Below, piece by piece: positions 25,703 through 54,255 of a stretch of DNA of 64,000 bases. Within the stretch, counting starts at the first letter, position 1; every line of letters starts with the position of its first letter. The DNA is from Styela clava (taxonomy: Eukaryota). The stretch spans positions 13,702,001 to 13,766,000 of the forward strand of contig NC_135252.1 of NCBI RefSeq assembly GCF_964204865.1. The letters are read 5' to 3'. Under the pieces are notes generated by a model that ran no database searches, was not told the DNA's origin, and worked only from the letters and a program-made list of their open reading frames with translations. Position numbers and translations under genes: made by a program.

Positions 25703-28700
25703 ATGGCAAGTAAAAGTACAACAAATTTAAGCAGTTTACATAGTGTTGGAGTTTTGTGCAATCTGGATGATCTAAGGAAACATGAAAACTTATGTGATGT
25801 CAGTTTGTGTGTCGGCGGATGTCAACTGTCTGCTCATAAAGTTGTTCTCTCAGCATGTTCACCATACTTCAAGGCTATGTTCACTCAGGTAATTTCTGAA
25901 GTGCTTGAAAAAACCTACTTCTAACATACCAATGGCAATGACTTTTTCAAAAATTTTATAGGTAGAATTTTACTCAAATTTTCGGACAGTATTTATTTTC
26001 ACTAAAATTTTTTTTTTGAATATTCCGTCTTTGAAATAAAGATATTGGACTGAAGCAATTTATATGCCCTGGTAAGTTAGTAACTTTAAGTGAAACTTCA
26101 TACAAGAATGGACCATTGGATGGACCCATGTTTAAAAAAAAATTATTGATCAACAAAATAATAAGATGAACTTCTATTTGGTTTCGGGGAATTATTTAGT
26201 AGCTTAAAATTAAATTTATTGTAAGAAGATGTTTTATGAATTTGGATGGTAAATTGATGTCGATTCAATTTTTGCAGATGAAATGTCAAGGGTGGCAAAG
26301 GTCATTGGAAGAAGAATTTTTGTCTATGATTTTTAAATATGTAATATTTTTTCGGGGGTTTTTAGTGACTGTCACAATGGCTTTTTAGCTTATCTATATT
26401 ACAATATTGGGGGCTCCCGAAATATGCGAACCAAGATGGCGGACATCGGAATGTAATATGTGTACTAGGTTAGGGTTAGGCCATAATTTTAGATATAAAT
26501 ACTACGGGAGGCTCTTGGCTACTCTTCGAACTGATAATAGGACTAAAATAAGGAAAATTGGAAAAAAATTATCGCCTAACCCTAACCTGTTACCCATGTT
26601 ATGTTCCGATGTCCGCCATCTTGGTTCGCATACTTCGGGAGCACCCAATATTGTTTATTTACATTTTGTTAATTGCACAGGACATGGCAGAAAAAAATCA
26701 ATCATACGTTACTTTTCACTGTGTAAATGTCGATGCAATGGAAATGATTATTGATTTTGCCTACACTGGCAAACTACAGGTATTAATATTAGTTTTATTT
26801 ATCGCACTTTTCAATCTGTATCTTTGAAATCACTTCTAGTATCAAAAAAATTTTTTTAAAACAAATTTATATATATATATATATCGTATTTTACGGACCA
26901 TACGGCGCATCATATCATAAGGCACACTGTCAATCAATTGCTCAGATTGAGTTTATATTCACGCATAAGGCGCATTAGGGTGTAAGACGCGACAGCTTTT
27001 AAAGCAATCATGCTACTGTTTTTTCAGTATATGCAATAAAGCACTACCTTATTAATACACTTCATGCACCTACCTGCTCATAGGGCGCACAATCAGTTTT
27101 TGAGAGAGAAAAAAAGACTTAAAATGCGACCCATGATGTGTGACATACAGTTTATATATATATATGAGGAAACATGTTCTTCTGAACACTTGCTCTTCTG
27201 AGCTGGAATTTCAGTGATTGTTCAGTAAATTTGCTCAGAGATAAGTCCTGTGGGGACTGATTGTGTGAATTTTGAGATCTGTCATTATTCATGGCAACAC
27301 ATTATCTTCTTCAATCTTGCTTCACTATTGCACCATCTTAAACAACTTCTAGGGATAAGTTTTTTATATTATATAAAATCAACACAACATTAGAATGTAC
27401 ATCCAAAAAATTAAATTATTAAACGTCATCGAGTTATTTTCGAATGATATCCAGATGATTTCTTATATATACGTACTATATAACTTTCTGGCAATGGGCT
27501 GAATCGCATCTACGAGTTTTAATTCACATAATCCTTTATTAGAGAGGATTAGTTGAATAGCTGTTCCTTACGAATATTGAATTGAATGGGGATTAGGCTT
27601 GTCTGAGGCTGTCAGATCAACACGATCAATATTAGAAATTGAATAAATACAATATTGATCATGAATAGAGATAATATAACTGAATAGCTACATACACTCG
27701 GTGTTCTGGTATTACCTTTTCTTCATAAATCATGGTGTTGTTAATGTTAAGGCAAAATTTTCAGATAAAAAAGGAAATCAAATTTGAAATGACACCTGAA
27801 AAGATTTATTGAAATGCATCTATTTCATTTAAAAAAATTCATGTATTGAATAACATCCTTGTATGAATATATATACCGTATATACCTTGGATAACTTATG
27901 ATTTGAATTTTTGTTTATTGTGAAATCATTTTGCAGGTGACAGCGTCCAATGTTCAGAGCCTTGTTCCTGCAGCTTGTTTATTTCAAATGCATCTTATTA
28001 TTGATGAATGTTGCCAGTTTTTGGAATCACAATTGCATGTCAACAATTGCATTGGAATATGGAGATTTGCTTATGATTATGGTTTAATTGAGTTGACTCA
28101 AGTATGTTCAAAATATAAAACTAATGAAATTGCTTATAGACGAGAATGTCCAGAATGAATAAAATACATCTGACATCTGAGTCTATCTGATATGAATTAT
28201 ACTCCATATTTGAAATTCTTGAATTTTGGAATTATATAATATATTTTCATTAGAGAAATTATCATTTTGAACAATTAAAGTCTCACACTATGATAAAAAA
28301 TGCCTCCATTTGGTTCTCAAAAAAAACATAAAACCAACAAATTCATTATCTTAACTTCTCCTGCATTCCTGAATTCAAACTCATATCCATTATTAAACAC
28401 GACCCAATTTAGAACATATGAGATATTTCGTATTCGAAAACATTAATTAGAAAGCATTTATGATAGTGAATTGTTTCATTTTGGCTATGGGTTAGTATCA
28501 ATTTTTCATCTTCTGTTTTTATTTTAGGTTTTGTTTAAATTCATCAATCAGAACTTTGAAGAAATATCAAAACTGGATGAAATACATGATCTTCCAGTTA
28601 AATATTTGATCAAAATTTTATCATCTGATGATTTGAATGTTTCTTCAGAAGAATCGGTGAGTCAATGGATGATTAATATAAGCTGAGCTGTAGAGTTGTG

Positions 28701-31700
28701 GAGAATTGATAACAGTCTGAATTTCTAATTCCAAAAACTTTGACTCTGACTCTCAGCATGCCAGACTCCTCAGTTTTGCTTCTGGTGCATTTTAATGGGG
28801 CATCACAAATTGAAGATATCTTGTTCTAGTATTAGCCCAAGGAATCATAAATTTTGTATGACTGGTGGTGTTTTCATATGATTAAAATTGTCAACTTTCA
28901 AGCAAGCTTAGCTCTCGATCTTTGGTCTACTGATTATGAAGATAACACTTAAATATTATGAAACTCTAATTGGGAACACTGTTTTCCCATATTTTAGTAA
29001 GATATTTGAAAACTCTGATTGATTCTTGATTGATTGATATTTACATTAATCCTACAAATACATAATTATGCAACACTGTGTATTTCAGAAATAAATATGT
29101 TCCAAAATTTTCATCTTCTTTCAGGTATTTCAAATCCTGGAATCTTGGATCATGTGGGATGTGGAAGCAAGAAAAATTAATTTACCGAGATTATTAAAAT
29201 GTGTCAGATTATCTTTGTTAAGTGCAACATATTTGAGAAGATCGTCACTGTTGAATTCTTTAATTTCTTACAATTCGTTAGCATGGGATATTATGCATTC
29301 TTCAGTGCAGGTAACCATGCTTTCTCCTGGTATTTCAGGATAAGATTTTCATATCTATCCCGAGGAAGGGAAAAGCCCTACTCATATGCTTGACCACATC
29401 TTATCGTCCGCTCTCATGTAAATGTTGGGTATGGGAAAAGATATTTGTTTCATTCAGATGCATGAACTTGATAGAGGGGACAGCCGCTACAGACCAGTGG
29501 CTCTCAGCCTATGGCAGTGAGCAATCTTTTTGTACATAATTATTTTTCCTGAAATTCGGAACTGTGAACATGTGCAGTAATCAGAGATGCAATGACAAGC
29601 ATGTTTTGCCAACAGCCGAGCCAGTAGAATTTTATCGTTTGTTTTCACTTATTATTTTAGTAATGTATCACTGACTTCTTAAAATAACCGGTAGGTAAAA
29701 TTCTAAAGACTTTTCCTTGTTATAGTTAAATGTTAATTGAGTGAAATTTCCGTTAAATTCCGTGTCATGATTTGTATTACAATTATTCGACTAAATTTTA
29801 TATTCAACGAAGAATAATTTATGATTTGTTTTACGAAGGCATATATTTTTGCGTGAACACATATAATAAATTCTGTTTAACATCTGACATCTGTTTATCA
29901 TCTTAACATCTGCTCTGTCATTTTGAAGCACAATGCATTCGTTTGCTATTTCCGTGAACTATTTGAACCCACCTGCCATATTATATATTGTGTTAGTATT
30001 GATAATAATGAATTCAGGAAGTTCCGTGTTTGCTGACTAAATTTTGTAAATCAAATCCTTCAGCAAGCAATATGACAAGCACAAATTACTATGCTGCATT
30101 TTTGAAGTGCAGAAATTGTCAAAAAATATATATTGTAAACGCTCCCATCTCAGCTTAGTTTAGTTACTGTATTGCTTTACAGCAGTGGTTGGCAAAATGT
30201 ATGTACTACTGTGCCAAATATGCACATTGACGGTAGCAAGCGGGCCGGATTATTTTTTGCCTATATTATTGCATTAAACTTCCAATAATGACCCACCTGC
30301 AACTGCTGTTTCTGTGTTTCTTTGTTAAAGCAAACAAAATACAGTTTTCTATCATATGGTGCTCATATATAATCACCCAATTATGATTGTACTTACAGGG
30401 TGAACTAACTCTTGATCAACAGCATGTTCGGCCAAGGTGTGCACCCAAGTTACTTTGTGCAGTTGGAGGGAAGAACGGATTGTTTGCTACATTATCAAGG
30501 TCAGCTTTTATATAAATTTAATACAAAAGAAGTTCTGAAAATGACCAGGGGTTGGGCAGTATAATATATAAAATGTTTCACACGAAAATATTTTGTGAAT
30601 ATGAAACAATTTGTTATTCCAAATGACAGTGTTTGTTATTTGACCTATCAAAAACTTGAGTAATATCGAATATATTAAAATATTTGATGTTTTTGAGCGT
30701 AACTGGTTAGCGGCTAGCCGCCTATAAACTAGAAGCAGTAATTTGTAGCTTTGTTTGCACACTATGTATTACTAATATATGATGATTTGCCTATAACAAT
30801 GTATTCGGACATTGCAATCGTTCTAAAATTAGTCATTCGTAAAAATACTTAAGCATTAAAAACTCTTTGCATTTCAAAATATAGAATCTATTATACTAAT
30901 TTTAATTGGATTTATCAATATAGGGATAACGAAAACCAAATAAATAATTATTTCGAATGCGTTTTGAAATGATATTTCAGAATATGAAATTTTTGTATTG
31001 GCCAGTGCGCCTAATGTATGGTCTTATGCTTATGCCTACACTCCAGCAGGTACCAGTACCGGTTGCGTCTTATAGCTCGGTGAACATTATGTATGGATAA
31101 AACCCCAATCAATTATAACCTGCTGTGCTTTATGGTTTGTAAAATACGGTACTAAGCTGTAATTTAATAATTCGATCATTGTCTCCTGCTTAGGATGGCT
31201 TGCAAAATTCATGCTTTGTTTACATTCCCACCATAGACAGAACAAATAAGTTTGAAGTGAACAACACACACTATTCTATTATAATTAATATTTAATTTAT
31301 CATGAATTGTTTACTAATCAAACAATTGTAAAAATTTCGTGAACTTAGTAGTTTCGATTTTCTTCCCTGTATTTCTGAAATAGCTACCTAAGTTAGTCGA
31401 TTTCTGTTTGTGACATTGGTGTTTGATATTTCAATTTTTGCTGGATCAAGTGAATGTTCTACATTATACCAATTACAGCAACATGCTTATTATTCATTAC
31501 TTATTTCAAATGAGGCTTACAAAATGTCTCGCTCTATATTGTGTCCAAACGCTATTTCAGAACATTACCTGCTAGTTTCTTGCTTGTTAAAATAATTTCA
31601 ACAAAGTTTTTTTTCAAAATTTTTGCTTCCACTAGCTGTTGACTTGCACTCTTTCAAGTCGCAGCAAATGCAAGAAAAAATATTTTTGCAGGCTGTTTTG

Positions 31701-34700
31701 CACCTCACTTAATGCGAGGATCTGTACACTCAGCTACAAAAATCTTTAATAACCTCTTACACCAACATCATTGGAACCAACGCTGGGCATTCTTGACATA
31801 ATTTTTTGCTTGAGCACCTTGAGCTTTTCTTTTATCAACTTGTTCCAAAAATTTTATGATATTTGAGAGTGAGACATTCGGTATGTTTTTATTAGAGTCC
31901 GAGTCGAAATTCAAAGCGGATCAAGGTGATATCAAAGTCGAATTTTTCTGTAGAAATGCAAAATAAATTAAAAGGAGTAAGCGTTCCCGTCAGTCTATTA
32001 TGGAAAACTTTCATAACCCAATATGATTCCGAAATTTGATTATGTATTCAGTTTGGAAATCTACCTGCCAGCGAAAAATGAATGGAAATCAATGGCAGCC
32101 CTGCCTCAACCTCGATATGAATGTAGTGCTGTTGTTGCTGACAGAAAACTGTATGTCTTAGGTGGAATTGTCTGTGAACCATACAAGTAAGTTTTAAGAT
32201 TATATTTCATTTGCATTGTGTATGTGATATTATGTAAGAGTCCAAACACAAAGTGGCCGTAAGAAAACAGAATTTCTTAATTATTTCTACAAAAATGAAG
32301 AAAGTTTATTTAACACTTGAACTACTGTTTGTGTATAATTTCACAGAAAAAAATCCATTTGCTTTACATTCCCACTTGACTTATTTAACTCAGGGTAAGG
32401 TATTATCGGCCTAATATATTATATGGTATTGGCCGATTATATGCTTCATTAAGCGCAATCTCTCTCTCTAGACAACACTCAAACACAGTAGTAGTATGGG
32501 ATCCTGATAAAAACAATTGGATAAAATCAGTTGGGATGTTGAAAAGCAGAAGCAGTTTTGCAAGTGTTGTATTGAAAGGTTGGTAATATGGATGAAATTA
32601 TTTAACAGTTATGAAGGATGGCCAAAACTAAACCAAAACCTATTATTGCAAATACATTTCGATGGAGTATTTTTGAATATATGAATTATCAAATATATTC
32701 TAAATCAAGCCATGGTTAATTAAAAGAAAAATTTACACAAACTAGTAAATATTCTCAAAAAAGAGGGTCAAAAGAGTGCTTTCCCCATCAATTTTCATGA
32801 ATCAGCGTTCTCACACTGTGAATCTGAAATATCTCCTCTGGCCTTACTAGATTTATGTTAACGCATTTGTGTGTACATCACGAGCAAAAGCAATTACCGA
32901 TACCATCATGTGTAGTAACCCACTAAAACAAGGCACTTTGACGCATGCACCGGTGCACATTATTGGGGCATGAGGAAAAATGAGTGAAATAAAACCAATG
33001 AAAAATAGAGCGTACATTGGTGGTTAATTAACAAACAGAGAGGAGAAAGTTGCTCATTGGACTGTAACCCTTCCTTGTAGGGCTAAAAATTTGCCCAAAA
33101 TATATAATACCAATTTCAATTCAATATGTTTCGGACATCGCTGGCAACCAGTAGTCTATTTTTAGTTCCAAATGCTCATTAGTTGAATACCTGTATTAGT
33201 ATTAACAATATGCCTAGCACTGCACAATTGATTACACAATGCACTAGTTATGTAATGCATTAAGGTGCATGTGATTAATTATAAGTTGAAGCCTCCACTA
33301 TTGATCATCCGAAATTTTGAAGCCGGCTGGACATATTGGAAAGATCTTTTTCTATGACTGTCGTATTAGTGGCTTCTTGTCTCAAGGCTCAGTCATGAAG
33401 AAAGCTTGATTGAACATGTTATCAGATATCCCAATTTTTGTAATAATAATACTATCATTATTTAAAGGTGAAATCTATGTTCTCGGAGGATATGATGGGG
33501 AATCGTATCTCAAGCATGTGGAGAAGTTTTCTCCTAGGAAATCAACTTGGGAACGAGTAACCGACATGAAACAAACAAGGATTTGTTTTTCTGCCGCGGC
33601 ATTGCATGATTGTATTTATGCGATTGGAGGATATGGTCCTGCACACCAGGACAGGTTAGTTTGAATATCTACTTATTTGTTGTTTTCATCCCGATACAAG
33701 ATCCAGAGCTTGTCAGACTCAGGCCCTATTCCTATTCAAACTATGATCCTCTCGAAAAATGATCTTGAAACCTGATATTCTAACTCAATTCCTAATGATA
33801 TATTTCCTACTTCGCTTCAGTGTAGAGATGTACAACACAACAACAATGCATTGGCAGATGTTGAAACCGATGTTGAATAAAAGAATAAACTTTGGTGTCA
33901 CAGTATACCAAGATTCTATTTATGTTATGGGTGGACACAGTGGGACAGCTCATCTCAGGTCAATGGAAAAATATGACACAGAAAAAGAAGAGTGGGAATT
34001 ATGCAATTCAATGAGAAGGCCAAGAACAGGTTGGGTTGGATATTATTCTTTGTATCGTTCAAATAAATATTGGAGTGATTGGAATAATGCATGAAATAGT
34101 TATAGTTTGGCTGTTTTCATTGCCAGATTGAAATGATTAAAAAAATTGTTGTGGTTGTTTCAATAATGGTTTATGAGGATTGTATTATTTTCAATTAATT
34201 TATAATAATAGAAGGAGACTATATTTCAACATAATCAATTTGTTCCTATTTGACGCTTAATCAAGCCTTTCCGTTCAAACAAGATCCTGATATTGTAACG
34301 ATATGTAGGGGGCTAACTTTTTCATGAAAGGGGAAAAAATTCCACCACAAAAATAGACACTTTTACTTTGATATTTAGAATTAAATTACCATTCAGTAGG
34401 GAAAACAGCATCATTATTCATTGCTACTGCAATCAAAATTTAAGTATAGTGTCACAAATCAATTTAATTTATCAATAACTCTAGCAATTTTTAATAGGTT
34501 TGTGGTCCACCTAAAAATGTTTATGTGGCCCAGCCAGTGAACCATGGCCTATTGGTTGGGAACCCATGTGTTAGGCCATCGCACCCAATAGTAATCTTAG
34601 CAATGTCTCTCAATACTGAATGCACTATATATAAAATAAAACTCTATGCTAAATCAAAATATAAATACTCGTATTAAATGTAAAAATTCCAATTTTTAAA

Positions 34701-35092
34701 TCTCATTTCATCTCATACCTTCACTCTGGTCAGGACTGTGTACAAGCATACATAGATACTTCAAGAGCTCTACTATTTATGGGATGATTTGAATGTTTGT
34801 AGTCATTTTTTCTTTATAAACTAATGTGCAGTGTAATTGGGTAAATAACTTTGAGGTTTCAATTCTCTGTTTTATACTTTGTTTGTTTAATTGACAATAC
34901 TCAGTATAAAATACCATAATTATTTCAGGTATTGGTACCGCTGTAATAGATGGCAAATTCTATGTTGTCGGCGGACATTCGGGTCACGAATATCTTAACG
35001 ATGTAGAATGTTATGATCCGGGCGATAAAACATGGGAGAGATGTTCTGGGATGAATTCAGCTCGATGTGCTTTTGGTCTGGTGGCATTGTGA
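25703..35092 (+). CDS. KLHL28: Kelch-like protein 28 (BTB-BACK-6xKelch), about 555 aa, 11 exons
   Basis: Exons 25703-25888, 26681-26779, 27937-28101, 28528-28656, 29125-29310, 30399-30499, 32052-32186, 32472-32578, 33468-33654, 33821-34029, 34929-35092, all in phase. RPRCAPKLLCAVGGKNGLFA, GGYGPAH, KRINFGV and the final RCAFGLVAL match KLHL28 as recalled. Confidence 0.9.
26410..26645. mobile_element. Full-length hairpin MITE with TTAGGG and YY1-like motifs
   Basis: Long inverted arms (GGGGCTCCCGAAATATGCGAACCAAGATGGCGGAC...GGTTAGGGTTAGG / CCTAACCCTAACC...GTCCGCCATCTTGGTTCGCATACTTCGGGAGCACC); 8-bp TSD CAATATTG. Confidence 0.85.
26884..27150. mobile_element. pogo/Tigger-like MITE inserted in a (TA)n run
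   Basis: Starts TCGTATTTTACGGACCATACGGCGCA, has repeated TAAGGCGCA motifs and a degenerate right TIR, with TA repeats on both sides. Confidence 0.55.
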
Positions 35093-37941
35093 CATCATCA
35101 TGGCCTTAACAGTATTATTAGTCTCCAATGCTTACATGAGATATTCAGTTATCATTAATATTCAAGATGCAGTGCTTTAAGGCTATGTCTCTCTAAGAAT
35201 TTGAAGAGTGCCAATGGAGGACATGGAACTGAAATGCTAAGAACCTCTACGTAGTTTATTCCTTGAGACAAATATGTCAGGAAATATCGAGACTTGAAAC
35301 AATTCACGTCAGCACTAGTGAGGAAAAATTCATTTAAAAAAGCGAAGGTCTTAAGCGAAAAATATTAACATTCATAAAATTTCGATAACTAACAGAAACC
35401 CCTAGGCATGTATAGAACTCGCTCCGGACCTGGAGCCAGCATGTTGCATATATATTTTGAACAAGTACCTATATACTCTGTATTGATTACCTTTTCATTT
35501 TATTGGTTAATTGTTAATATGTATTCATTCTCTGTATGTTCATTGTAAAAAGAGATTATGTGAAATCTTAGTATTCACCAGGAATGTGGAGAATTCACTC
35601 TTGTATTGAGAGATTACTTGACGTCTAATGAATATTCATCGTGACTGTGAAGTCAGCATTTGCATGTTTATATTGACATTTTCAAACTCTCAAACTGGGA
35701 GCCAAAAGTAGAATTTAAATTTCTTTCAACTAGGAGTTGAAATGGATTCGTTTTCTAAATTTCCGAAAGTTTGGGAGTATGTTGTCGATCTTCCCCAGAC
35801 TTTGATATTCCCAGTCTTGGGCATTTAGTCGCATCACTCTAAGCAAGATGCTTGCTTAAGCCGTTACTACAGTATTCGAAGATGACATACCAATGCAGGA
35901 ATTCAATATTTTATCCCATATTTTTACATAAATGGATGTGTAAATCACTGGAGTTACAATATGAAAACAGATCAGTACAATATGCTATTGTAAATTTGTA
36001 CTTCATTAATTTGAACAAAAAATATTTTTCCATGTAATAAATCTCGCTGGGAACTTTGGCTGGGGAAAGCTAAATCCTTTTTATAAGTTCACTGGCGTTA
36101 TTTGGTCCATCTGTTCCAACTGACTAAATGTCCGATCTTTATTTTCAATAAAAAAATAAACACAAATCAGTAAGCTTTAATCTTTAGATGCATGTTTAAA
36201 ATTATTTTCCATCCCTATTACAACCATATCCAATTGTCAATAGTTCAGCGTCCATATTTGTACTTCTGTATATATATATATACTCATCACCTGTGTTCTT
36301 CAGACTTATTACTTTATATTTTGTTGCTGCAATATTTTTTTGAAATTTAAATAATGATATTGCCCAGATTATTGACTACCTAGTCGTACCATTTAAGTCT
36401 GCATATTTTGTGTAAAATAGACGTTTTTGGCGTGCTGACTTAAATGATATTTTTGCATTTCGAGTTTTGGGGACAGTTGCTGATGTAAATATATGAAATT
36501 ACTCTATGCATGAAATTATGCTCCTGTTATTATTTTAAAAACTCAGTGCGTATTATGAGATAATATTGCTTTTCCACTTATATACGTTTGATAGCTTAAT
36601 GTTTCATTCAACTGTGTAATAAATGCAAAATACTATATGTCTGGAGAATTATTATGACTGGCCTTGTATGTATTGGCATAAGGGTCTTATACCATCTGTG
36701 TTCCTCATTTTCGTTTCTCAAACAGCCAACAGAAACGCGCGCAATCGTTACAACTTGTTTATGATATAATTCCCAATTTGACATAATGTGTACCATATGC
36801 ACACGAAATTTGGAGGTTTACGTTGTCGAAAATAAGCGTTTTTTTATCTGTCGCGTGGATCCTAAAACAAAACTTAATTTTTCTTTTCGTTTTATTTGCA
36901 ATATTTTATAAAACTCTTTTCAGTATTAGTATTTACTCTCTTATTTTCAGTCGTAAGTTTGAGTTGCAGGTTCTTTTACAGTTGACGCACAGTGGCACAA
37001 GATGTGCAGCGAGATACCGTTATTGGCGACTTTTTCGGTTTTCCGAAAATTTTTAAGAGGGTGGGGGTGTTCAGCTGCTGATGAGGTGTAACATTTAGAG
37101 AATATTTATGTGAACGCGACTTAATTTTTTGCTCTTTTTCCACAACCATAAGTAATTATCTCTTTTTTGTCAGTTCAAATGATTCCTAATTTCTTTCGTA
37201 GTCAACTCCTACTAGGAATCACCGCTAACAAAACTTCGTGAGACAGTGCAGCGCTTATTTGTAATCAGCACTCTCGCAAAAATGAATCAAGTTTCGCGCC
37301 CTATTTGTTGCGCGATCTACAACACAACCTAAACGCGAGAAAGTGCATGAGCGATCGTTTTCGTTTGGCTTTGTAAAGGTACGCTCGATCTAGGTTATCA
37401 GGAAATTATGTGGCTAACAAGTTTCCTCTGTGTTTACAAGTATTAAGTAGTTTTGTCATTATACATCATTGGAACGATTACTTAAATTCGAGATCCCTCG
37501 TTCTACCAGGCCTTGTGTAGTAAACGTTTTGGTACGGGTAAATGAATACGGGGTTTATGAGAATTAGATAGTATTTTGAGGGGGAGTTTTAATGTACAAA
37601 GTTGAAGACGAAAGCGCAGAAAAACACAAACATTTATATAGTTTACATATATATATGTATGACCTATAACTCGGAGGTTATAGTATTGGAGTTGGAGTAA
37701 TAACTCATAAGGAAGTATTTAATTAAAATACTTATACCGGTAACCGCACGCGGTTAGGTGAATGCTCCGCTAAAATTATCCGCCATTGCTTATCGTGCGG
37801 TACTGTGGGGGTTCTTGCCTCACGAAGTTATTTCTAGGCTAAAAAAAATTCTCGTGAATTGTTGCTTAGTGTTTGCTATCAATTGAGTCTGTTTTCGGTA
37901 TTATTATTGGAAATTACGAACGTTCTTCCACTCGCCATCTT

Positions 37942-40900
37942 ATGAAAATGTCGACTGCAGTAATAGTAAGCGGGAGAAAAGTAGCTTTACTTCTAAAGTT
38001 ATATAGATTTTTTGCAGGTGAGAAAAAGCATTTTTCTATTATATCAAATTTGAGTATAATTAAACCAATAGATATAACCATTGTCATGGAATTTGGAGTC
38101 TGATTGGATTCTTTTACTTGTTTACAAATCTTTCCGCGTTTCTTGTTTTCTTTGTATGTTAGTAACTTGGAAAATGACGATTTTTTCTTTAGGTATTTCT
38201 CAAAAACAACTTGCAAGTGTCATGTGTGAAATGTTTGGCGAAAATATCAAAGTATCAACAATAAGTAAATTTGAACTTGGAACTGAGGTAATTTTATTAA
38301 CAGTAATAAATTTTAACAATGCTCACTACTTCGCGTATTTTTATGGCCCATCTGACGATATGACACGTGGTTTAGATATCTAGCTTCCACCAGAATGGCT
38401 CTTATTCTACCGGGTAATATCGTATTCTACCATTAACAAAGAGTAGTCTACTCACTGCTTGTGCTAGGCAGGTAGGCTAAATAACTAATATGCCACCGCA
38501 ATATTAATAGTATCCAGTCAAATGTTTTGGTCTTAATTAAAAAATTATACCAAATCTTATATTAATTTGTGTCGAATCCGAAAAAACAAATAATAAAGCC
38601 TTCTGGCTGAAACAATTTGTAAATCGAACATATCAACCTTATTCAATAATGTTTCAATTGTAGGCATGCATGCAAGATGTCAAAGATTTTTCATTGAAAG
38701 CAATGGTATGGCTGGAAATTATGGGAATAGATTGTCATTATCGCCTCGTTTCAGTCAATGACTGTGATAGCATAGATGGGATGAGAAAAAAAAGAAAGGT
38801 TGCAGAATTGCCTCCGCTCGAGAAAAGAGCTTTGGAAACACTTCGCAAAATGTGCTCGGGATTCACATTGGAGGTAAGCAGCTGTGCTGAATGTGCGTGA
38901 AACAAAGTATTATCAAAATCTTCAGAAAACCATAGGGGTACCCATCCGATTAAACTCTCCATGCAACATTCTCTCTCTTCACAACAAATCCTGTCTAAGT
39001 CGCAGAACAGTGATCCCCGCATGAGCTTGAAAGAAGTTTCACGACATACCTAGAAAATGTTATAGTTAAGCCTTGGTACGACGATTGAGTTTCTCAAGAT
39101 AAAATATAGAAGCCTATTATATTTCTTATAACAGCATCTTCAACTATTGGAAATAATATTTGGTGTTACACCAGAGGATCTACATAAATGGTCTATTCAA
39201 CTACGACGCAGACAGAAAAACTTCAATTCCATCAGAAAAAGAAAAAGGCCTCAGAATGTATGTGATTGTTTTGTTCAAAAGTTGCATTTATATAGATTTT
39301 TACCCAACATAGTTAAAGAAATGAAAAGCTTAAAATTTCATAGTTTATAGTTAAAACGTCACAAATATTCCCTCGAGGGAACGCTGTTCTACGTCAGATC
39401 CACGGCGATTATGGTGAACTAATTTTTAATGAGAAAAAGTAGAATACATATATATGTATTTTGGCAAATTGGACAGACATGAGTTTGATTTCAAATTCGA
39501 AACTCAAATTTTTATATTGATGATTTAAATTAGCTTATATCTAATCTGTTTCACTACTGCTTTTTCTGCAACCATTTTTTTCTAAAGCAGGTTTCTGAAA
39601 AGCAGTGCCGGAAAGATTTCCTTTCAATCACTGCGAAAAATCATACGGAAATTCCTGACAAACATGTTGACAGCTTAATTGTTTCAGAAGATTCTGGAAT
39701 TGAATCTGAAACGCCTGCTTCCCCAATCAAATACACGTATGTCGCTAGCTATCCATTGCGTTAATTTTATACCAGGTATTAAAGTGAACAAACTTTTGAA
39801 CACCTAGCTAGACAATATTTGCTTGTAGTATGTGAACTAAGATGGCGGACACCGGAACTTAGCATGTGTACCAGATTAGGGTTAGGCCATAATTTCAGGT
39901 ACAAATACTACGGGAGTCACTCGGCTAATCCCCGAACTCGTAATAGAACTAAAAAAAGGGAAATTGGAATCAAATTATGGCCTAACTCTAGTCTGGTACA
40001 CATACTACGTTCCGGTGTTCGCCATCTTGGTTCACATACTACGGAGGTACTAGATAGCGCACTATATGCTAAAGGATTTAATTAATCGAGCTTGAAAATT
40101 ACACGTGAGTTCGCATTTCCCCACAAGCAAAAGCATGATCTATCTCTGACTAATCGTTGTTTTAATTCTAGTAATGGGAAAACCTATGCACCCCTGCACC
40201 CAGTGACATCAGCAAAACGGAGAATAATTTACGAAGAAGCAATTGAAAACCACCGTATTTCGTATGAAATGCCCCAAACCGATACGGATGAGGATCAGTT
40301 TTCCTGTGCACTGCTTTAGGGAAGACATGAGATATTCTGTTCACAATATAGGCCTATCTATATAAACTATAATGAGGCACAAATTTTCTTACTTTTCACA
40401 AAAATAATAACACCGACACTTGCTTGAAATTCGGTTAATTTTTTACAGTTTTCTTTCATTTTGGTAACAAGTACAGCCACTCCACTTGCAAAATTTTATT
40501 TTTCTAAGAATATTCCGTTAACATAAAATAATTGCGTTCAAAATTTTCATGTCCATAATTATTTAAAATTTCCAATAACTTGGACAAGGCATTGGTTTCG
40601 TTTATTTCCACGAAGTGTATTCAAGCCTCAAATTCAAAAAAACTTCGCACAAGTATCCGTTCAAAGATAGGATATACTGAAGCCCAAAATAAAAATATTT
40701 TTATTTATTCAATGCCAAATGATACACACCGTTTAAGGCTTCGTCATGTCTCTCTATCAATACATTCTTAATAAATACCCCGCCACTCCAATATATGAAA
40801 CGATAATGGAATACTGTTTTCGAAATAGCACATGTGCATCTTTTACAGACAATCCCACGCTACCGATTTAATTGTCCTGGAAATTCATTATCGATCTTGT

Positions 40901-42141
40901 AAAATTGATTTCGTGTTCTTTCGGTTGCTGCTGCATGAGTACGTACGCGATAAGTACGAATTGCAATGTTTGTGATATTTAATTTATCAACAAGTCGCTT
41001 TTCTATTTATTTCGCATTTCTTTTTCGGGCATGCTATATTCACTCTTCGAATAAAGGAATTTTTTTTTAATATTTGTTGCTGGAGATCATAGTATTTGCA
41101 CTTTTTTACATAGACAATCGTGGGAAATTTGTTTATCCCGTTAGATAGTTAATCCCGTTAGATTAAATTTCCCAGAAGCTAACACGGTTTTATGCAAGCA
41201 GGGATTCGCCGCAAGGAGGATCTTGCAACGACTGTTCGCTTGAAGCCACGTTTCCAAGTCTGGGAGAAATTTATCCTCGAAGAGAAATTTTGTCGTTTTT
41301 GGGGGGTACTTTTACTTTGTATTTTCTGCAGTATCTAATATTCTTTATAATTTATATTAGCACACATTATAAACTACTTAAACTTTAAACAAAAAACGGG
41401 GATGCGACTTGCGCATAACACTAGCTTCATTCATTCCGAGGTATTCATTCTGGATACCTAGGATTCATTAAAAATCTAATAAATAAAGTAGTTTTTATTT
41501 ATAGTGAGACAGGAATAAAGAGTTTCTACTATGCAAAAGTAGGAATTTCGTGAAAAGGTTCGGAAGCACTGTCCCAAGGCTCCCATCACCATCCGAGAAT
41601 GCGTGTTATTTAGTCAACCCCGTTCAGACTTCCGATTTTCAAATTCGATCATATATCAATGCCAACCCTTAAATAAAAATATTCGGTTGATCGAACAGTA
41701 TGATCACAAATAAACCAAATATTTGGATAGTAGAATAACTGATATCCAAAACAACCCAACTTATAACAACACCGCCATAATACTCTATTGTACAAACAGC
41801 CTGCAAACATGTTGACCTTGAATATTTCCTATAAATAATACACGTTGAGTTATAATAAGCATTTACATTATAGTAAACACTTGTGGCAAACACTTCCAAT
41901 AATTTTCAACTTCAATAAAGGGAGACAACATATATCAGTTACGCAAGACGTAATACAAAAAGTGGGAAACGAACATCTGCCGCTCAGTGACGATAGTAAA
42001 GATATATATAATTTGTCAAACGGAAAGTTATTTTGCTCAAATCGAAATGATTCGGTCCAGAGAGTGACGAGTGAGAAGTTGGTCTCAACGATAAAACGCA
42101 CGGTACGATTTAGCTTACCCATATTTGGGAGATGCTACTGA
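37942..42141 (+). CDS. Highly divergent POU-domain (POU-specific + homeodomain) protein; about 384 aa, or about 265 aa if it ends at 40319
   Basis: Exons 37942-38017, 38193-38287, 38664-38873, 39135-39257, 39591-39736, 40172-40261 (or to the stop at 40319), then less certain 40849-40938, 41202-41305, 41921-42141; all phases are compatible. POU-specific-like VALLLKLYRFFAGISQKQLASVMCEMFGENIKVSTISKFE...KAMVWLE; homeodomain-like RKKRKVAELPPLEKRALE...LHKWSIQLRRRQK. The start codon is uncertain. Confidence 0.7.
39826..40050. mobile_element. Hairpin MITE (TTAGGG/YY1-motif family) in a POU-like intron
   Basis: GTAGTATGTGAACTAAGATGGCGGACACCGGAAC...TTAGGGTTAGG...GTTCCGGTGTTCGCCATCTTGGTTCACATACTAC; homologous to 26410-26645. 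Confidence 0.85.
41962..41979 (-). promoter_or_regulatory. Candidate PTF1 (Ptf1a/E-protein/RBPJ) bipartite site upstream of the colipase-like gene
   Basis: The minus strand reads CAGATG-ttcg-TTTCCCAC: an E-box, a 4-nt spacer and a TC-box, about 700 bp before the colipase-like ATG. Confidence 0.45.
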
Positions 42142-42673
42142 TATATATGCTTAAATGAAATACGATTAGGTAAAAGAAAAACCTGTTCCTATTCCACAGT
42201 TATAAAGTAAGTGAATTTCTAGCCCTCGTTCGCCTTTATGTACACTTATACACGTTATAACTCACATCAAATGGTAAATATTTGAGCTCGATTATATAAA
42301 ATAAGCACATTTTAATTCAGTTGACAGCTAGAGCAGTAACAAGTACGGAAGTACGCAGTCGTTTGCCACACCTGCACTGTTTTATTGAAATTTATCCCCG
42401 GGTGATTTCAAGTTTCAGTGGAGTTTAAGTCAAAACTTAAATATTCCACAGAATTACTACACGAATTTGAGTACAAAAAGATAATTTCTTTCATAAACTA
42501 GTTTCACTAAGAACGCGGAGTGAGTGATCGTAGCAGTACTTACTTTATATCATTTACATTGTGCATTTGAACTGCATTTCCATTCTAGCTAAATACCAAC
42601 CTAGTTGTAATTATTGCAGTTGTCATTTTTGTAACCTAATTGTAACTTTTCTGCCGCCATCTCTTGATCAAAA

Positions 42674-43670
42674 ATGTTTCTCAGAATTATATTGTTCTAC
42701 TGCTGTTTAGCATTGGTGACATGCTCAGTAGAGAAAAATTTAGTAATCAATTTAGTAAGTACTATTTATTTGTGCTAATTTGACGTATTTGTAACCCACC
42801 CGTGCAGGACGCGGTAATACTGCACCTGTTTTTCTAGGAAAACGGAGAAATATGTGCTTTTGGAAGTCAGTGTTTGAGTGGATGCTGCAAAAGGAACGGA
42901 GTCGTACTTCGATGTTCAAGTCTTAGCAAGGAAGGTGCTCAATGTACAAGAGACGTGAGTACCGGAATAGTTTAATCGATGTCTAGCAACAACAAAAATG
43001 GGTAGTCAGACCTGAAGATTTTATTGTCTCGGGTTTATATCGTTTTCTCGAACTTCACGCAAACAGCAGAAAAATTTTAAAACCCGGATTCGACTTGAAA
43101 TCCGGAAGGCGAAGCTGGTGATTCTGGCCCAATTTCAAGTACTCAGCATTGAAGTTTTTAGCTCGTTCCTAGATTTAAGAAAGTGACCTTTCAAACGTAT
43201 TTTTTGAACATCTGTTTACAAGTTGCATCTTTAATAAGATAATAGTAATGCATATATTTCTAAATATAATTGGGCTATCATTCAACAACGTACGTGACCA
43301 GTAATCAATCAGGATATATATAATCTCATTTGCTGATAGACTTCCTGCACGATTATCAACCTGCATGACCTGACTTCAATAAGAAAGTTCTTTTCTAAAG
43401 TTCCTCTTAAATCTGTACCAATTTCGAATTTATTTTATTTTTATTAGGTAGCCATTTGTAAGATTTGATGGGTAAAAAACAAATCAAGAAAGTAGCATTA
43501 ACTTTCTTGAGCACGCAGCGCTCACGTGACGGAATTTATAAATCGCAGAATAATCCATAAAAAAAATTATTTTGTAGGATATGTTGGACACCGAGGTTTT
43601 TCATTGCCATTGCGAGATGGGATTACAATGCGACAGACAAACAGACGTATGCGTGGACGGGAACGCATAA
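42674..43670 (+). CDS. CLPS: Colipase-like secreted protein, 96 aa, 3 exons
   Basis: Exons 42674-42754, 42838-42954, 43578-43670 (phase 0/0) give MFLRIILFYCCLALVTC-SVEKNLVINL|ENGEICAFGSQCLSGCCKRNGVVLRCSSLSKEGAQCTRD|DMLDTEVFHCHCEMGLQCDRQTDVCVDGNA*. Signal peptide, 10 mature cysteines in colipase spacing, and an INL|ENGE junction as in human colipase; AATAAA near 43781. Confidence 0.85.
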
Positions 43671-44193
43671 AATGACATCTCTGCAAATACTTATTCATAA
43701 AATTCAAATGATGGAATTTAATATTACATCGATTTGGTAAAATTCAAAAGATGCTATCAAGATTATAATAATTTTATATAAATAAAATAAATGGAATTTG
43801 ATATTGATGAAATTCTCTGTGACACCTTCAATAAATGTACTGAATACCTATTTCTTCCTCAATATTTCTTTGTGAGCAAATTAGCCGGTCAGTGATCTGT
43901 TAATTATGTATTTTTTATACAGCATTGAATTTGAAATGTTAAACATAACATGAAGAGTGAACTGTGCTCAATTACATATATAATATACACATTTCGAAAG
44001 GACTTATGTAAATTTTAGGAGTTCTTCTTATTCTAGAACGTCTTTGATGGTTTCTAAATTACAGTACAACCCAGTATTTAGAATATAAATATTTTTCATA
44101 AGGGTTTATTTGTCTGGGCATCTGATTTGATCCAATGTTTGTGCTTGATTTGGTTCCAAAGTAAATAACTTGTTCAATGTTAACTGGACAAGA

Positions 44194-45018
44194 CTATTCT
44201 TCAAATCCATCCACTCGTTTATTGTATAACTTTTCCATTTCTAAAGCAGCGTCTTTACTTTCCATCACATATGCATGACTTCCTTTGGAATGAATATACA
44301 TAGATTCTTTCAATGGAATGCCGGAAAAGAAGAAAAATCTTGCAGGCTTTTTGTCTTTGGTTTTATTTTCGAACTTGATAAAGTCTCCACCAGAGATATC
44401 ACCAGTATGTCTTGCTTTGATCGTAACCCCTCCGACTACGATAGTACCTTGCATTGTGTAAATGAAAGTGGTCCATGTTCTATCGATTGGCTGAGTATGC
44501 GAAGACCCCGAATTCAACGTGATATCTAACATTACTGTTGGCTGCTGCGTTTGTACTCTTGATTTCATTCCTAGTGAGTTTCCCATTAGCACTCTCACTG
44601 TTGCGCCCTCATTTTGTAAAGTAGGTGTTTGAGCCTTCCTAGAAACTTGAAAATCACACGGAGTTCTCTTTTTATCATGTGGTAAATTTACCCATAAATT
44701 AAGGCCGTTTGCAACCCCAACGGGCATTTCTCTGTGTATTATACCACCAGCTGCGCACATATTTTGAATTCCGTCGGGTCCCAGAACGTTTTTGTTTCCA
44801 GCGTTGTCACCGTGAAAGAGTTCGCCTTGAACAACAAAAGTAACGGATTCAAATCCGGTGTGAGGATGATTCGCAAAAACGGTAGGCGCTAGAAGATTAA
44901 AATGATCAAAAAATATAAACGGATCCTTTTGCACGAACTTTTGGTCGACCAAACCAAATCTCACGAATCTTTGCACTGCGTCATAAACTTTGGTGACCGT
45001 TGCAGCAACTTGATCCAT
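44194..45018 (-). CDS. PIR: Pirin-family bicupin protein, intronless, copy A
   Basis: DPFIFFDHF, HPH-x-GFESVT, GGIIHREMP, LWVNLP; metal ligands H-x-H and H-x-E are retained. Confidence 0.92.
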   Translation of the reverse strand: MDQVAATVTKVYDAVQRFVRFGLVDQKFVQKDPFIFFDHFNLLAPTVFANHPHTGFESVTFVVQGELFHGDNAGNKNVLGPDGIQNMCAAGGIIHREMPVGVANGLNLWVNLPHDKKRTPCDFQVSRKAQTPTLQNEGATVRVLMGNSLGMKSRVQTQQPTVMLDITLNSGSSHTQPIDRTWTTFIYTMQGTIVVGGVTIKARHTGDISGGDFIKFENKTKDKKPARFFFFSGIPLKESMYIHSKGSHAYVMESKDAALEMEKLYNKRVDGFEE

Positions 45019-47250
45019 TTTTAACTATTTATTGTCAATTGATTGGCTAAACGCGTGCTGGTAAAATAATCGACGCATAACAAATTTAGTAATGTCGGAG
45101 CTTCGTAATACGATACATGAATCCTGTACAGGTCTTGCAAAAATAGGAATCTGGGGCCGAGGAATCGGTATGCCTTGACTACAAGGCTTAAACTAAATTG
45201 TCGAGCCAAAAGTTGATTAAAGATGATTCAAAAGATGACCTGACCAAATCATCATTTCTAAGATTCATTACATACGGTTAGATTATTACTTGAACTATTT
45301 TACCCCATTTCCCAAAGTAACCCTCTATCTATTCTTTTTGTTCAAGATAAGTTATTTTTGCTCGTGCTTCAGTAAGCATCAACAGCTTGAAATCTCCTCT
45401 TACTCCATTGTTTTTGCACTTTTTATCCTAAACATAATCATAATTAAGCTCATTATAAGCAGACCCAGTTCTTTGTGAAAAATTATGATCAATATATATA
45501 ATATCTATTATAAACGAATCATTTGAAATATCAAAGTCGTACAGTTTTTTTTGTTTTTCAGGCAAAATTGAAACAATACTATTAAATACAAGTTGAGTAA
45601 TCGCACAATTGCAACGTAATTTTTTTATTGGATATTCCAAAAAAAGAAAAGGATTTCACGTCAAAGTAACTACATCATATCCAAAGCCAGTATAAACATG
45701 TAAATCGCTGTGTCTTTCACACTTCCTACACTAACTGAAACTGAACATATGAATAATCTTCATGCATCACCGTTGCGTATCAAACGGGAATGATTAGAAT
45801 GATTGAATTACATGCACATGATGATTGAAGGCTGACTTGAGCTCTTTTTGTTCAATAACTGAAGTGAGTAGAAACACTGCTGACTATAATCATCAAATGT
45901 ATGTTGCATGTAATATACAAATTAAGGCATGTTACTGAAAACTTACGGCACATATAAATTATGTTTTAATGATATATCATAGTCGTGACCTGATCGAACC
46001 GTGCTTCAAAATTTATGTGACAATAATGACACATATGAAATACCACGTGCCTTATTAATCATAGATCAATTGATATTATTGATCATCAATACATTATATA
46101 TTTTCTTTTGGACATAGATGAAAAAAATTAGTTGAGCAAACTCATAATACATGCCGACACACTTGTGACGCAACACGGGGCATGCCGAACTTTTCTGCAG
46201 CCCAGTGCCAGAAAACGATGCGCTTATACCTCACTTCAAAAATAATATGGGAATAAACAAATTGTAGATGTTGGTATACATGATCATGAATCAATGAAAA
46301 GACGAGTAAGAGTGGGATGTTTGTATTATTAAATAAATCATCAAACTAAGCAACAATTTCACATATCTAAAATCCAACTTATAACGCGAACTCTACAGCT
46401 TGGATCTGCTGCCGCCTTCAACGTTCTGCCCGGGGCGGCTCCCCTTATGGCCATCCCCTACGTCCGTTCCCTGGTGTAACAGACTTAACAACACTTAGTC
46501 TTCAAGTTCGAAAGAACCGTTTGTGACTTAAAACTTTGTCCTTTTTCGAGAAAATTCCCATACCGCCAACAATGAAGTATGATAATGCGCACTTGCTCAA
46601 TGTTGATATATATTTTCAAATCAATATCAAATGATTATTGGCGACTACCAGCAAGCTTTTTAAGAATTAGCTAACCCCATTCTTCGAAATAAAACAAAAA
46701 CAAGCATGTGCCAAGCAATACCATTTGTTGCTCACGTATATTATTATTGTATTATATATATGGACATGAATTGGACCTATGAATCGTTTTGTTATTATGT
46801 TGTTCTTGGTATGTTTCTTCTTATCGTTATGAAAAAACCGCTTTTATCTTTAACTACTGAACCAATTGCTTTGGAATTTTCAGTGGTTAAAGCTTGTATT
46901 TTCCTTTAGTTTAGAACTTTTTCGTGTTCATATAGTTGGTCATAACTCTCTTGTTAGTGATAATATAGCACATTTTACCTCATTTGCGATTGGTATATAT
47001 ATATATATACTTATTTGGCGTTAACAGAATTCCAATATTTTCAATGCATACAGTGTTACTTGTATATCGCGCGTTTTGCGTATTTTGGAACGTCCCGGTT
47101 GTTTCTAAATTACTAACAGTACAGCCCAGTGTTTAGAATATACATATTCATCATAAGGGTTTAATTTTCTGGACATCTGATTTGGTCCAATGTTTGTACT
47201 TGATTTGGTTTCCAAGTAAATAACTCGTTCAAAGTTAATTGGACAATGTC

Positions 47251-48075
47251 TTATTCTTCAAATCCATCCACTCGTTTATTGTATAACTTTTCCATTTCTA
47301 AAGCAGCGTCTTTACTTTCCATCACATATGCATGGTTACCTTTGGAATGAATATACATAGATTCTTTTAATGGAATGCCGGAAAAGAAGAAAAATCTGGC
47401 AGGCTTTTTATCTTCGGTTTCATTTTCGAACTTGATAAAGTCTCCACCAGAGATATCAGCAGTATGTCTTGTTTTGATCGTAACCGCTCCGACTACAATA
47501 GTACCTTGCATCGTGTAAATGAAAGTGGTCCATGTTCTATCGATTGGCTGAGTATGCGAAGACCCCGAATTCAACATGATATCTAACATTACTGTTGGCT
47601 GCTGCGTTTGTATTCTTGATCTCATTCCTAGTGAGTTTCCCATAAGCACTCTCACTGTTGCGCCCTCATTTTGTAAAGTAGGTATTTGAACCTTCCTAGA
47701 AACCTGAAAATCACATGGAATTCGTTTTTTATCATGTGGTAAGTTCACCCACAAATTAAGGCCGTTTGCAACCCCAATGGGTATTTCTCTGTGTATTATA
47801 CCACCTCCTGCGCACATATTTTGAATTCCGCCGGGTCCCAGAACGTTTTTGTTTCCAGCGTTGTCACCGTGGAAAAGTTCGCCTTGAACAACATAAGTGA
47901 CGGACTCAAATCCGCTGTGAGGATGATTCGCAAAAACGGTAGGTGCTGAAATATTAAAATGATCAAAATATATAAACGGATCCTTTTGCACAAACTTTTG
48001 GTCGACCAAACCAAATCTCACAAATCTTTGCACCGCGTCATGTAATTCGATGACCGTTGCAGAAACTTTTTCCAT
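47251..48075 (-). CDS. PIR: Pirin-family bicupin protein, intronless, copy B
   Basis: Same length (274 aa) and motifs as copy A, with scattered substitutions. Confidence 0.92.
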   Translation of the reverse strand: MEKVSATVIELHDAVQRFVRFGLVDQKFVQKDPFIYFDHFNISAPTVFANHPHSGFESVTYVVQGELFHGDNAGNKNVLGPGGIQNMCAGGGIIHREIPIGVANGLNLWVNLPHDKKRIPCDFQVSRKVQIPTLQNEGATVRVLMGNSLGMRSRIQTQQPTVMLDIMLNSGSSHTQPIDRTWTTFIYTMQGTIVVGAVTIKTRHTADISGGDFIKFENETEDKKPARFFFFSGIPLKESMYIHSKGNHAYVMESKDAALEMEKLYNKRVDGFEE

Positions 48076-48287
48076 TTTTATCTATTATTGTCGAACTATA
48101 GTTAGATTGGCGAATCGCATGCTGGTAAAATAATCGACACATAACAAATTTAGTAATGTCAGGGATTTGTAATACATGAAATAAATAGAGCGAAAAGTGA
48201 ATCATATGACAAGATAATGACAACATGATTGTGACATAACAGACTTACTAATACTAAGTCTTCAAGTACGAAAGAACAGGTTGTGAC

Positions 48288-52935: not shown

Positions 52936-54255
52936 ATGAATTCCTGTATTAGAAATGTAAGTATTCTATGCGCTTTTCATTATTTTAGAAACCAACAGGA
53001 TGGGTCAAACGAGTTTTGGACGGTCATTGGCATTACTAAAGTAGTTTCTTCGAATCTTTGCATGCTTGGGAAATATATTCGCAGAAAATCATTTTGAGGG
53101 ATATCAAGTCTGTAATTAATGGTTGTTATTTTACTTCAACACAAGTGCCCACCAGTGTATCCTAACTAAATTTATTGCCTGACCAAATGTTTGGTTCAAA
53201 TAAATTTTATACCGGTACTGTTGTATCATGCTTATGTGCGACACTGCGGGTCACAATATTTGAAAGTAATTTGTTACTTTTGTGTAGAGACTGCAAGAAA
53301 TGGGATGCGTAGCCTGTGCATAAGAATGATTAACTTATTATACACTTTGAAAATCAGATTCAGGTCAAAATTTAACTTAGTAACCGGCTAACCGCAAAAA
53401 TCTTTGAGTTATAATTTATTTATGCCCTTCAACGTCTTGGATAACCCTACACGTTGAGATTGTTTGGACTGTTTTCTAGCATTACTGAGCTAACAATTTG
53501 TTAACAGATTCGAATACCTATTTCAGGCGCTTTTCTTCTTATTGCTGGTGTGTGGTACATTATCAAACCCGATAACAACTCCAGAACCAGATGATGACGG
53601 GACAACAACAACTGATAGCAGCGTTACTAGTCCAGAACCTGTCGTGGAAGAGGAGGTCGATGTAGGAGACAACACAGCCACAGAGCCAGCCGAGGTAGAA
53701 ATTCAAGCGGAAGAAGGTGGCGAAGAAACTGTCGTAACTGAAGAACCAACTACTACAGCGGGTAAGAAATGGGCGTAATGTATCAGACTTACCTAATCAG
53801 TAACCTAGAGTTGATTATTATAATATCAAGTATTGCTATAACGAATTCCGCTTTAGGGCAACCATATGTGACGTGTACCGGCAGTTAATGGGACTAAATT
53901 TTTTTCCTCTTCTAGATTTCGCAATCCAATCTCTTAATTGAAATACCAGGTTAGGGTTATACCATAATGTTATTCCAACTTTCCTTATTTTAGTTCTATT
54001 ACGAGTTACGAGACTAGCCAAGTGACTCCCGTAGTATTTGTACCTGAAATTAGGGCCTAGCCCTAACCTGGTACACATACTACGTTACGGTGTCCGCCAT
54101 CTTGGTTCGCATACTACAGGAGTACCAGTCATATATTATTCTTATGTTAAGGATGTTAATTTTAAACATGAATTTTACTATTTGCAGGTGCGGAATCCGT
54201 CAAAGCAAAATTTGCAGCAATTGTATTGGCTTCAATGTTGCCTCTCTTGTTGTAA
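52936..54255 (+). CDS. Small secreted acidic Thr/Glu/Pro-rich mucin-like protein, probably GPI-anchored, 107 aa, 3 exons
   Basis: Exons 52936-52956, 53527-53761, 54188-54255 give MNSCIRNALFFLLLVCGTLS-NPITTPEPDDDGTTTT...EEPTTTAGAESVKAKFAAIVLASMLPLLL*; strong GTAAG donors; AATAAA near 54356. Confidence 0.8.
53946..54126. mobile_element. Hairpin MITE (TTAGGG/YY1-motif family), one arm truncated
   Basis: GGTTAGGGTTA...CCCTAACCTGGTACACATACTACG...GTCCGCCATCTTGGTTCGCATACTACAGGAGTACC. Confidence 0.8.

Follow-up and report, generated by a model that had tools for sequence, protein, structure and literature searches.

In vertebrates, the 5′ promoters of secreted digestive genes carry a bipartite PTF1 site, the target of a trimer of Ptf1a, an E-protein, and RBPJ or RBPJL, in which an E-box (CANNTG) is followed by a TC-box (TTTCCC) one or two helical turns away, centre to centre, and both the site and its spacing rule are described in the accessible text of several reports (PMC2586380, PMC7197352, PMC9545688, PMC12406278). 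NR5A2 is named as an acinar regulator (PMC9545688) and ranked among the acinar regulons (PMC10331937) in the accessible parts of these articles. In the sea urchin, E-box/TC-box sites have been predicted on the promoters of digestive-enzyme genes (PMC4880809; Perillo et al. 2016), the sea-urchin Ptf1a is active together with mammalian partners, and enzyme-gene expression drops upon its knockdown, as given in the accessible text (PMC4880809); the work on exocrine pancreas-like cells of the sea urchin was extended in a report likewise accessible in part (PMC9437490; Paganos et al. 2022). The idea that a Ptf1a-driven enzyme program is older than the pancreas is already published for the sea urchin in the accessible text of PMC4880809, and a ptf1-containing 'exocrine' gut module is described across bilaterians in that of PMC12768270.

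Among ascidians, Ciona has Ptf1a, Ptf1a-r, and Tcf3, which are described in the sensory vesicle (PMC7693978, accessible text). Enhancers of the Ciona coronet (dopaminergic) cells, like the Styela site presented here, involve E-boxes, through which ascidian Ptf1a acts, but with Meis as the partner, in neural tissue, and with no TC-box or RBPJ described in the accessible text (PMC6169837), the main text of which does not contain the term RBP. In the accessible part of the literature searched, ascidian Ptf1a is described in neurons, together with Meis. For the Ciona gut, the accessible texts report the expression of enzymes related to the pancreas in several regions (PMC11661445), enrichment of a colipase-like gene (ENSCING00000000898) in the stomach (PMC11277035), and localisation of Nr5a2 expression posterior to the pdx boundary, along with mention of a further domain that is more anterior (PMC12768270), a pattern that would fit a stomach role only partly. 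A single RbpJ/Su(H) appears in the same gut survey as far as its text is accessible (PMC11277035), and RBPJL is therefore presumably absent. The main text of a preprint on single cells of Styela endoderm (10.64898/2026.01.25.701569) contains none of the terms 'ptf', 'lipase', 'clps', and 'rbpj', and no PTF1 site in a tunicate was found in the literature searched, part of which ground may be covered by Nakayama and Ogasawara 2017, Iguchi 2023, Holmstrom 2011, Masui 2007, and Hale 2014.

We analysed a stretch of 64,000 nucleotides (64 kb) of Styela clava DNA, hereafter the window. A first-pass annotation of the window had proposed a PTF1-type site, CAGATG-N4-TTTCCCAC, on the minus strand ~700 bp 5′ of the ATG of a colipase-like gene, together with two further sites nearby, and re-reading of the letters confirmed the composite:

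41962..41979, minus strand: PTF1-type composite, found by sequence scan with the spacing definition of PMC2586380 (accessible text)
41119..41126, plus strand: lone Su(H)/RBPJ half-site CGTGGGAA, without an E-box partner, uninformative
42369..42374, plus strand: lone E-box CACCTG, without a TC-box partner, uninformative

The composite reads GTGGGAAACGAACATCTG on the plus strand, and on the minus strand consists of the E-box CAGATG (41974–41979), a 4-bp spacer, and the TC-box/Su(H) site TTTCCCAC (41962–41969), the centres of the two boxes being apart by ~10–10.5 bp; it is located 712–695 bp upstream of the colipase-like ATG at 42674. The site contains a CANNTG E-box and a TTTCCC(A) TC-box at one-turn spacing, with the E-box 5′ of the TC-box, which is the order in PTF1 sites, and, with the start position taken from one contig, falls in the deduced 5′ promoter region of a colipase-like, digestive secretory gene. 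The vertebrate rule invoked by the first-pass annotation, an E-box one turn from a TC-box, agrees with the spacing in the accessible text of PMC2586380 and PMC7197352.

CANNTG-N4/5-TTTCCCA occurs only once in the window, namely at the composite. Markov models (orders 2, 4, and 5) fitted to the window predict 0.12–0.17 one-turn sites per 64 kb, and at least one match to the N4 composite appeared in 5 of 100 dinucleotide shuffles. For the 1.73-kb intergenic stretch, the Markov probability of a composite is 0.003–0.005 at one turn, 0.009–0.013 if one or two turns are allowed, and 0.12–0.13 with a very loose definition; among letter-shuffled TC-boxes, 2 of 140 (the real one counted) form a composite in this stretch. 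The sites at 41119 and 42369 are indeed present, but each lacks a partner one or two turns away and contributes nothing; with half-site classes at background frequency in the window (GTGGGAA, 10 seen versus 8 expected), both were dropped as regulatory support. A two-turn PTF1-like match at 29460, in an intron of a kelch gene, was taken as chance.

The downstream gene and its transcript were examined with sequencing runs, 4 of 14 of which (including X5, X9, X10, and X11) were placed on 37000–44200. Runs X5 and X10 carry no RNA or tissue label on record and were treated as RNA because GT..AG joints are present; coverage is swamped by a high-copy inverted repeat, and the joints and pieces given below are among those listed. 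The features concerned are as follows:

42003..42011, plus strand: TATA-like box, spanning −32 to −24 relative to the contig 5′ end
42035..42102, plus strand: putative first exon (non-coding) of the colipase-like gene, deduced from X5 contig 12, with a GT donor at 42103
42293..42322, plus strand: second TATA (42293) and initiator-like TCAGTT (42317–42322), from sequence only and not RNA-supported as a start
42674..42754, plus strand: colipase-like coding exon with the ATG and a signal-peptide-like N-terminus, aligning to vertebrate colipase N-termini, with a GTAAGT donor
42838..42954, plus strand: colipase N-terminal domain exon (Pfam PF01114, E 0.0017, sub-cut-off), covered in X5
43578..43888, plus strand: last exon, with the colipase C-terminal domain (PF02740, E 0.008, sub-cut-off) to the stop at 43670, followed by the 3′ UTR

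Exons 42674–42754, 42838–42954, and 43578–43670 join into an open frame of 96 aa. Scanned singly, the two domain exons scored 18.4 and 16.7 bits against Pfam gathering thresholds of 27 and 23.7 bits, respectively, whereas an HMM of 17 vertebrate colipases matched the 96-aa protein with an E value of 8e-21 (identity, 31–47%), and the best PDB matches of the colipase-like exon are colipases. The predicted protein is small and apparently secreted, the signal peptide being called by alignment only, and its mature part has ten cysteines with spacings of 5,3,0,8,9,12,1,5,6, compared with 5,3,0,10,9,11,1,5,17 in vertebrate colipases. Nine of the ten conserved cysteine columns align, and the tenth cysteine is present past a shorter loop. 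In common with the colipase family (PF01114/PF02740), the protein thus has a signal-peptide-like start, ten mature cysteines, and near-identical first eight intervals, whereas its last loop contains 6 residues instead of 17; the finger of this loop, which we take to be a lipid contact, is short in the Styela protein. Typical colipases bind lipase of the pancreatic type and relieve its inhibition by bile salts. The colipase-like gene claimed in the first-pass annotation is borne out by the HMM match, the ten cysteines, and the PDB colipases, and from its sequence we assign it at the family level, not to CLPS in particular. Toxin-family matches to the short cysteine-rich exons were rejected as a shared cysteine pattern, colipase being best in PDB and HMMER, and the matches of an atlas search, just disulfide-rich look-alikes scoring below 0.9, were discarded.

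A word search of a protein collection with the colipase exon gave no candidate, which is weak evidence, and a HMMER scan of 1.84 billion representatives gave one match, an unnamed protein with vertebrate colipase relatives; the 96-aa protein itself was found in neither search. Since both neighbouring pirin genes are present in the protein collection, the colipase-like gene may be unannotated, and the present analysis points to a gene not found in the protein collections searched. The cluster that holds the pirin genes has a representative named Styela clava.

X5 contig 12 is 496 nt long, and its listed piece 43578–43888 corresponds to contig letters 186–496. A difference row at 42065, located 31 letters from a piece end, has a depth of 16.7, equal to that of the contig 12 piece. 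A model consisting of 42035–42101, 42837–42954, and 43578–43888 fits 8 of 8 depth bins within 0.02, whereas an alternative model with the signal-peptide exon misses three depth bins; once one ambiguous G is assigned, the intron is 42103–42837 with GT..AG ends. The splice of the 5′ exon is a deduction by depth arithmetic, its joint not appearing among those listed. The composite is then positioned at −73 to −56 from the deduced RNA-supported 5′ end (42035). TATA-like words are common (275 in the window), and therefore only the position of the TATA-like box counts. The transcript start is not fixable from contigs, and a start near 42035 rests on a single contig.

The X5 contig starting at 42035 skips the ATG/signal exon (42674..42754), and this form could therefore not yield a secreted colipase. 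No X5 or X10 contig covers that exon or the region 41820–42034, and no coverage of the colipase gene was seen in X10. The TATA and initiator at 42293–42322 could be the productive promoter, in which case the composite would be ~350 bp upstream.

The 300 bp upstream of 42035 were scanned with 18 consensus patterns, chosen after the region had been viewed. Three FoxA-type sites and one NR5A2-type site, missed by the first-pass annotation, were found within 180 bp upstream of the composite, all on its strand (minus):

41803..41809, minus strand: FoxA-type site 1 (TGTTTRC), by motif scan
41813..41821, minus strand: NR5A2/LRH-1-type site TCAAGGTCA, by motif scan
41873–41879 and 41886–41892, minus strand: FoxA-type sites 2 and 3, by motif scan

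We take TGTTTRC to be the FoxA consensus and TCAAGGTCA that of NR5A2/LRH-1. The three FoxA-type sites compare with 0.12 expected in 300 bp (Poisson P, 0.0003, or 0.007 when they are taken as two), and sites 2 and 3 are possibly one small local duplication. At least three such sites occur in 21 of 6370 sliding 300-bp windows, every one at the colipase-promoter locus, and among 210 letter-shuffled versions of that word, with the real one counted in, a single version reaches three sites. The NR5A2-type word occurs twice in the whole window versus 0.4 expected, and its expectation in the 300 bp is 0.002 (P ~0.002; 0.011 for a looser form); as a control, 6 of 2481 shuffled 9-mers match the 300-bp region. 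GATA, Mist1, CAGCTG, HNF1, XBP1/ATF, and AP1 motifs are absent from these 300 bp, and six of nine factor-level tests were empty; the positive three include two FoxA patterns that are nested. Elsewhere in the window, a FoxA and NR5A2 pair spans a kelch splice donor (30481–30503) and was taken as chance.

The DNA upstream of the colipase-like coding exons thus consists of three FoxA-type motifs and one NR5A2-type motif, the composite, a TATA-like box, and a spliced 5′ exon, in this layout. The composite is probably the core of the proximal promoter of the colipase-like gene, read by Ptf1a, an E-protein, and Su(H) in gut secretory cells. The PTF1-type reading of the site, as a prediction, holds up, the published spacing rule and a promoter-proximal position both being found, and it gains strength from the location of the site, with a TATA box and an RNA-supported 5′ exon immediately downstream and FoxA- and NR5A2-type motifs near. 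The first-pass interpretation is thus partly supported, and the element is better placed than was thought at first, being promoter-proximal and accompanied by plausible cofactor sites. We infer the binding and expression steps as follows. FoxA would mark the promoter in endoderm; a dimer of Ptf1a (or Ptf1a-r) and Tcf3 would bind the E-box; a Notch-independent tether to Ptf1a would place Su(H)/RBPJ on the TC-box at one turn's distance; and NR5A2 would add activation, so that the gene would be expressed in those stomach cells that secrete enzymes. A productive transcript would contain the ATG/signal exon (42674) and encode a secreted, ten-cysteine lipase cofactor. Besides the motif cluster, this model is favoured by the rarity of the composite and its uniqueness in the window, the stomach enrichment of the Ciona colipase-like gene, the presence of Ptf1a, Ptf1a-r, and Tcf3 in Ciona and of Su(H) in its gut, and the sea-urchin results on Ptf1a. 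Counting against it are the skipping of the signal exon by the sole contig, the possible alternative start at 42293–42322, the lack of colipase coverage in X10, the post hoc choice of the cofactor motifs, the chance look-alikes elsewhere in the window, the preference of many other bHLH factors for CAGATG, and the action of Ptf1a with Meis in Ciona neurons.

An unlikely alternative is that the promoter is real and is read without the PTF1 trimer, or that Ptf1a drives a neural, non-productive transcript. Without the trimer, Su(H) would be a Notch-responsive factor or a default repressor, another bHLH factor (Neurog, Atonal, Twist, or Mist type) or FoxA/NR5A2 would act, and the one-turn spacing would be incidental. 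Against this stand the exact one-turn spacing in PTF1 order, unpredicted by a model of independent sites, and the TC-box itself, which is without the 5′ pyrimidine of YGTGRGAA, presumably the full Su(H) consensus and occurring 0 times in the upstream region scanned. Reading by other factors is favoured by the E-box, since CAGATG is a favoured box of many other bHLH factors and proneural and Twist factors have a preference for CAT-CAG boxes in the accessible text of bioRxiv 10.64898/2026.02.10.705010, and by the fact that Su(H) and components of Notch are expressed over the full length of the Ciona gut (PMC11277035, accessible text). The neural version finds support in the sensory-vesicle neurons in which ascidian Ptf1a is documented in the accessible texts (PMC7693978, PMC6169837), and a non-productive transcript in the sole contig being without the signal exon, whereas the nature of the target, a digestive cofactor, argues against trimer-free and neural versions alike.

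A chance match near a promoter, with no function, is distinctly unlikely. One- or two-turn matches are expected 0.33–0.47 times per 64 kb and loosely defined ones 5–6 times, and a first pass looks for many motifs; the probability of a one- or two-turn site in a given 150 bp, however, is ~0.0003–0.001, and the composite falls within the 150 bp upstream of the contig 5′ end, a position that the first-pass annotation did not know, with FoxA and NR5A2 motifs co-clustering beside it. Should the site prove inert, it would be an ordinary motif match.

As to conservation, a metagenome scan with the colipase alignment returned 92 matches to the pattern, none of them a relative, and the three loci of an exact 22-mer scan were all rejected as chance (54–60% GC; 23–29 aligned bases), neither scan yielding orthologous DNA. 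Run X9 covers 42003–42153, outside the motif, and X11, ~1–2x deep there, is too thin for variant calls.

The first-pass annotation had placed the composite inside the last exon of a POU-like gene and proposed a dual-use coding enhancer. The gene in question is the following:

37359..40945, plus strand: divergent POU-like gene, with the ATG at 37942, a Pfam Pou match (E 1e-4), and joints and pieces in X5 and X10

Its exons are supported by X5 and X10 from 37359 to 39775 and from 40172 on, the coverage in the deeper run X5 (depth 37) ending near 40945, and the splice forms encode 225 aa (stop at 39764) or 265 aa (stop at 40319), the X10 depth in bin 39410–39650 being reproduced by the 265-aa form. 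The POU-like frame therefore ends well before the composite, which lies in intergenic promoter DNA outside the POU-like exon and in no translated exon found here, and the dual-use coding enhancer is for this reason unsupported. That the composite lies within a coding final exon of the POU-like gene, or of a POU–colipase read-through, is very improbable: the frame 41839–42102 is open and shares its phase with the colipase domain exon, and low-depth X5 pieces lie between 41185 and 41819, but the POU-like frame ends at the above stops in the supported splice forms, no X5 or X10 RNA contig crosses 41820–42034, and the stop-free frame over the motif (41839–42141) contains no ATG ahead of the 42102 donor and has weak acceptors, no Pfam match, and a length expected by chance (7–17 such frames per 64 kb of random sequence). 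With respect to rare read-through, contigs prove the presence of transcripts, not their absence.

In comparison with the vertebrate PTF1 site, the Styela composite likewise has CANNTG then TTTCCC at one turn in the 5′ promoter of a secreted digestive gene, as far as that site is described in the accessible literature; unlike it, the present site is a predicted one, in an invertebrate chordate without a pancreas. The sea-urchin circuit shares predicted sites on invertebrate digestive promoters and the same evolutionary argument, with Ptf1a dependence there, according to the accessible text. Whereas in the sea urchin the function of Ptf1a was tested and the sites are just predicted, the Styela site, known from sequence, is placed against an RNA-supported 5′ exon, and the Styela case goes beyond the sea urchin in its tunicate colipase and its flanking FoxA- and NR5A2-type motifs.

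Arguments about how the exocrine pancreas arose usually draw on gene expression, the sea-urchin DNA sites being predictions in the accessible text (PMC4880809), and a short ascidian promoter with a composite and cofactor-type motifs would make the cis-regulatory side directly testable in the sister group of vertebrates. The Ptf1a/E-protein/Su(H) reading of the colipase-like promoter leads us to the tentative suggestion, which we put at somewhat below even, that the acinar promoter grammar of vertebrates (a one-turn Ptf1a/E-protein/RBPJ site acting together with NR5A2 and FoxA on a TATA promoter) existed already in the tunicate–vertebrate ancestor, operating on Su(H) alone before RBPJL and the pancreas. 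If so, the 240-bp colipase promoter would be a compact, electroporation-ready test piece for the ancestral acinar grammar.

Several other features of the window were recorded. The POU-like gene (37359–40945, plus strand) is expressed, alternatively spliced, and highly divergent, with a weak Pou match in one exon; its linker/homeodomain exon gave no PDB or Pfam match, and its recognition helix departs from what we take to be the usual pattern. One copy (39824–40044) of a high-copy, MITE-like inverted-repeat element lies inside an intron of this gene, other copies being at 26401–26654 and 53944–54128, with thousands-fold depth in 4 of 4 runs. The pirin genes are tandem and single-exon (44194–45024 and 47251–48081, minus strand) and are 96% alike over a 300-nt stretch. 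A kelch-repeat gene, BTB-kelch-like by eye, occupies ~25700–35100 (plus strand), and a PGAM5 gene, one exon of which is 99% identical to a Styela clava record, occupies 21453–23504 (plus strand). A fragmented non-LTR retrotransposon that includes an RNase H domain is found at 54992–57851 (minus strand). By eye, we also noted a FERM-domain-like gene that has an acidic exon of 1283 codons (285–5635, plus strand), a nicotinic-receptor-like exon (11483–11848, minus strand), and an acidic, secreted-looking exon (53494–53778, plus strand). A tandem array of ~57-bp units extends from 9400 to 9720.
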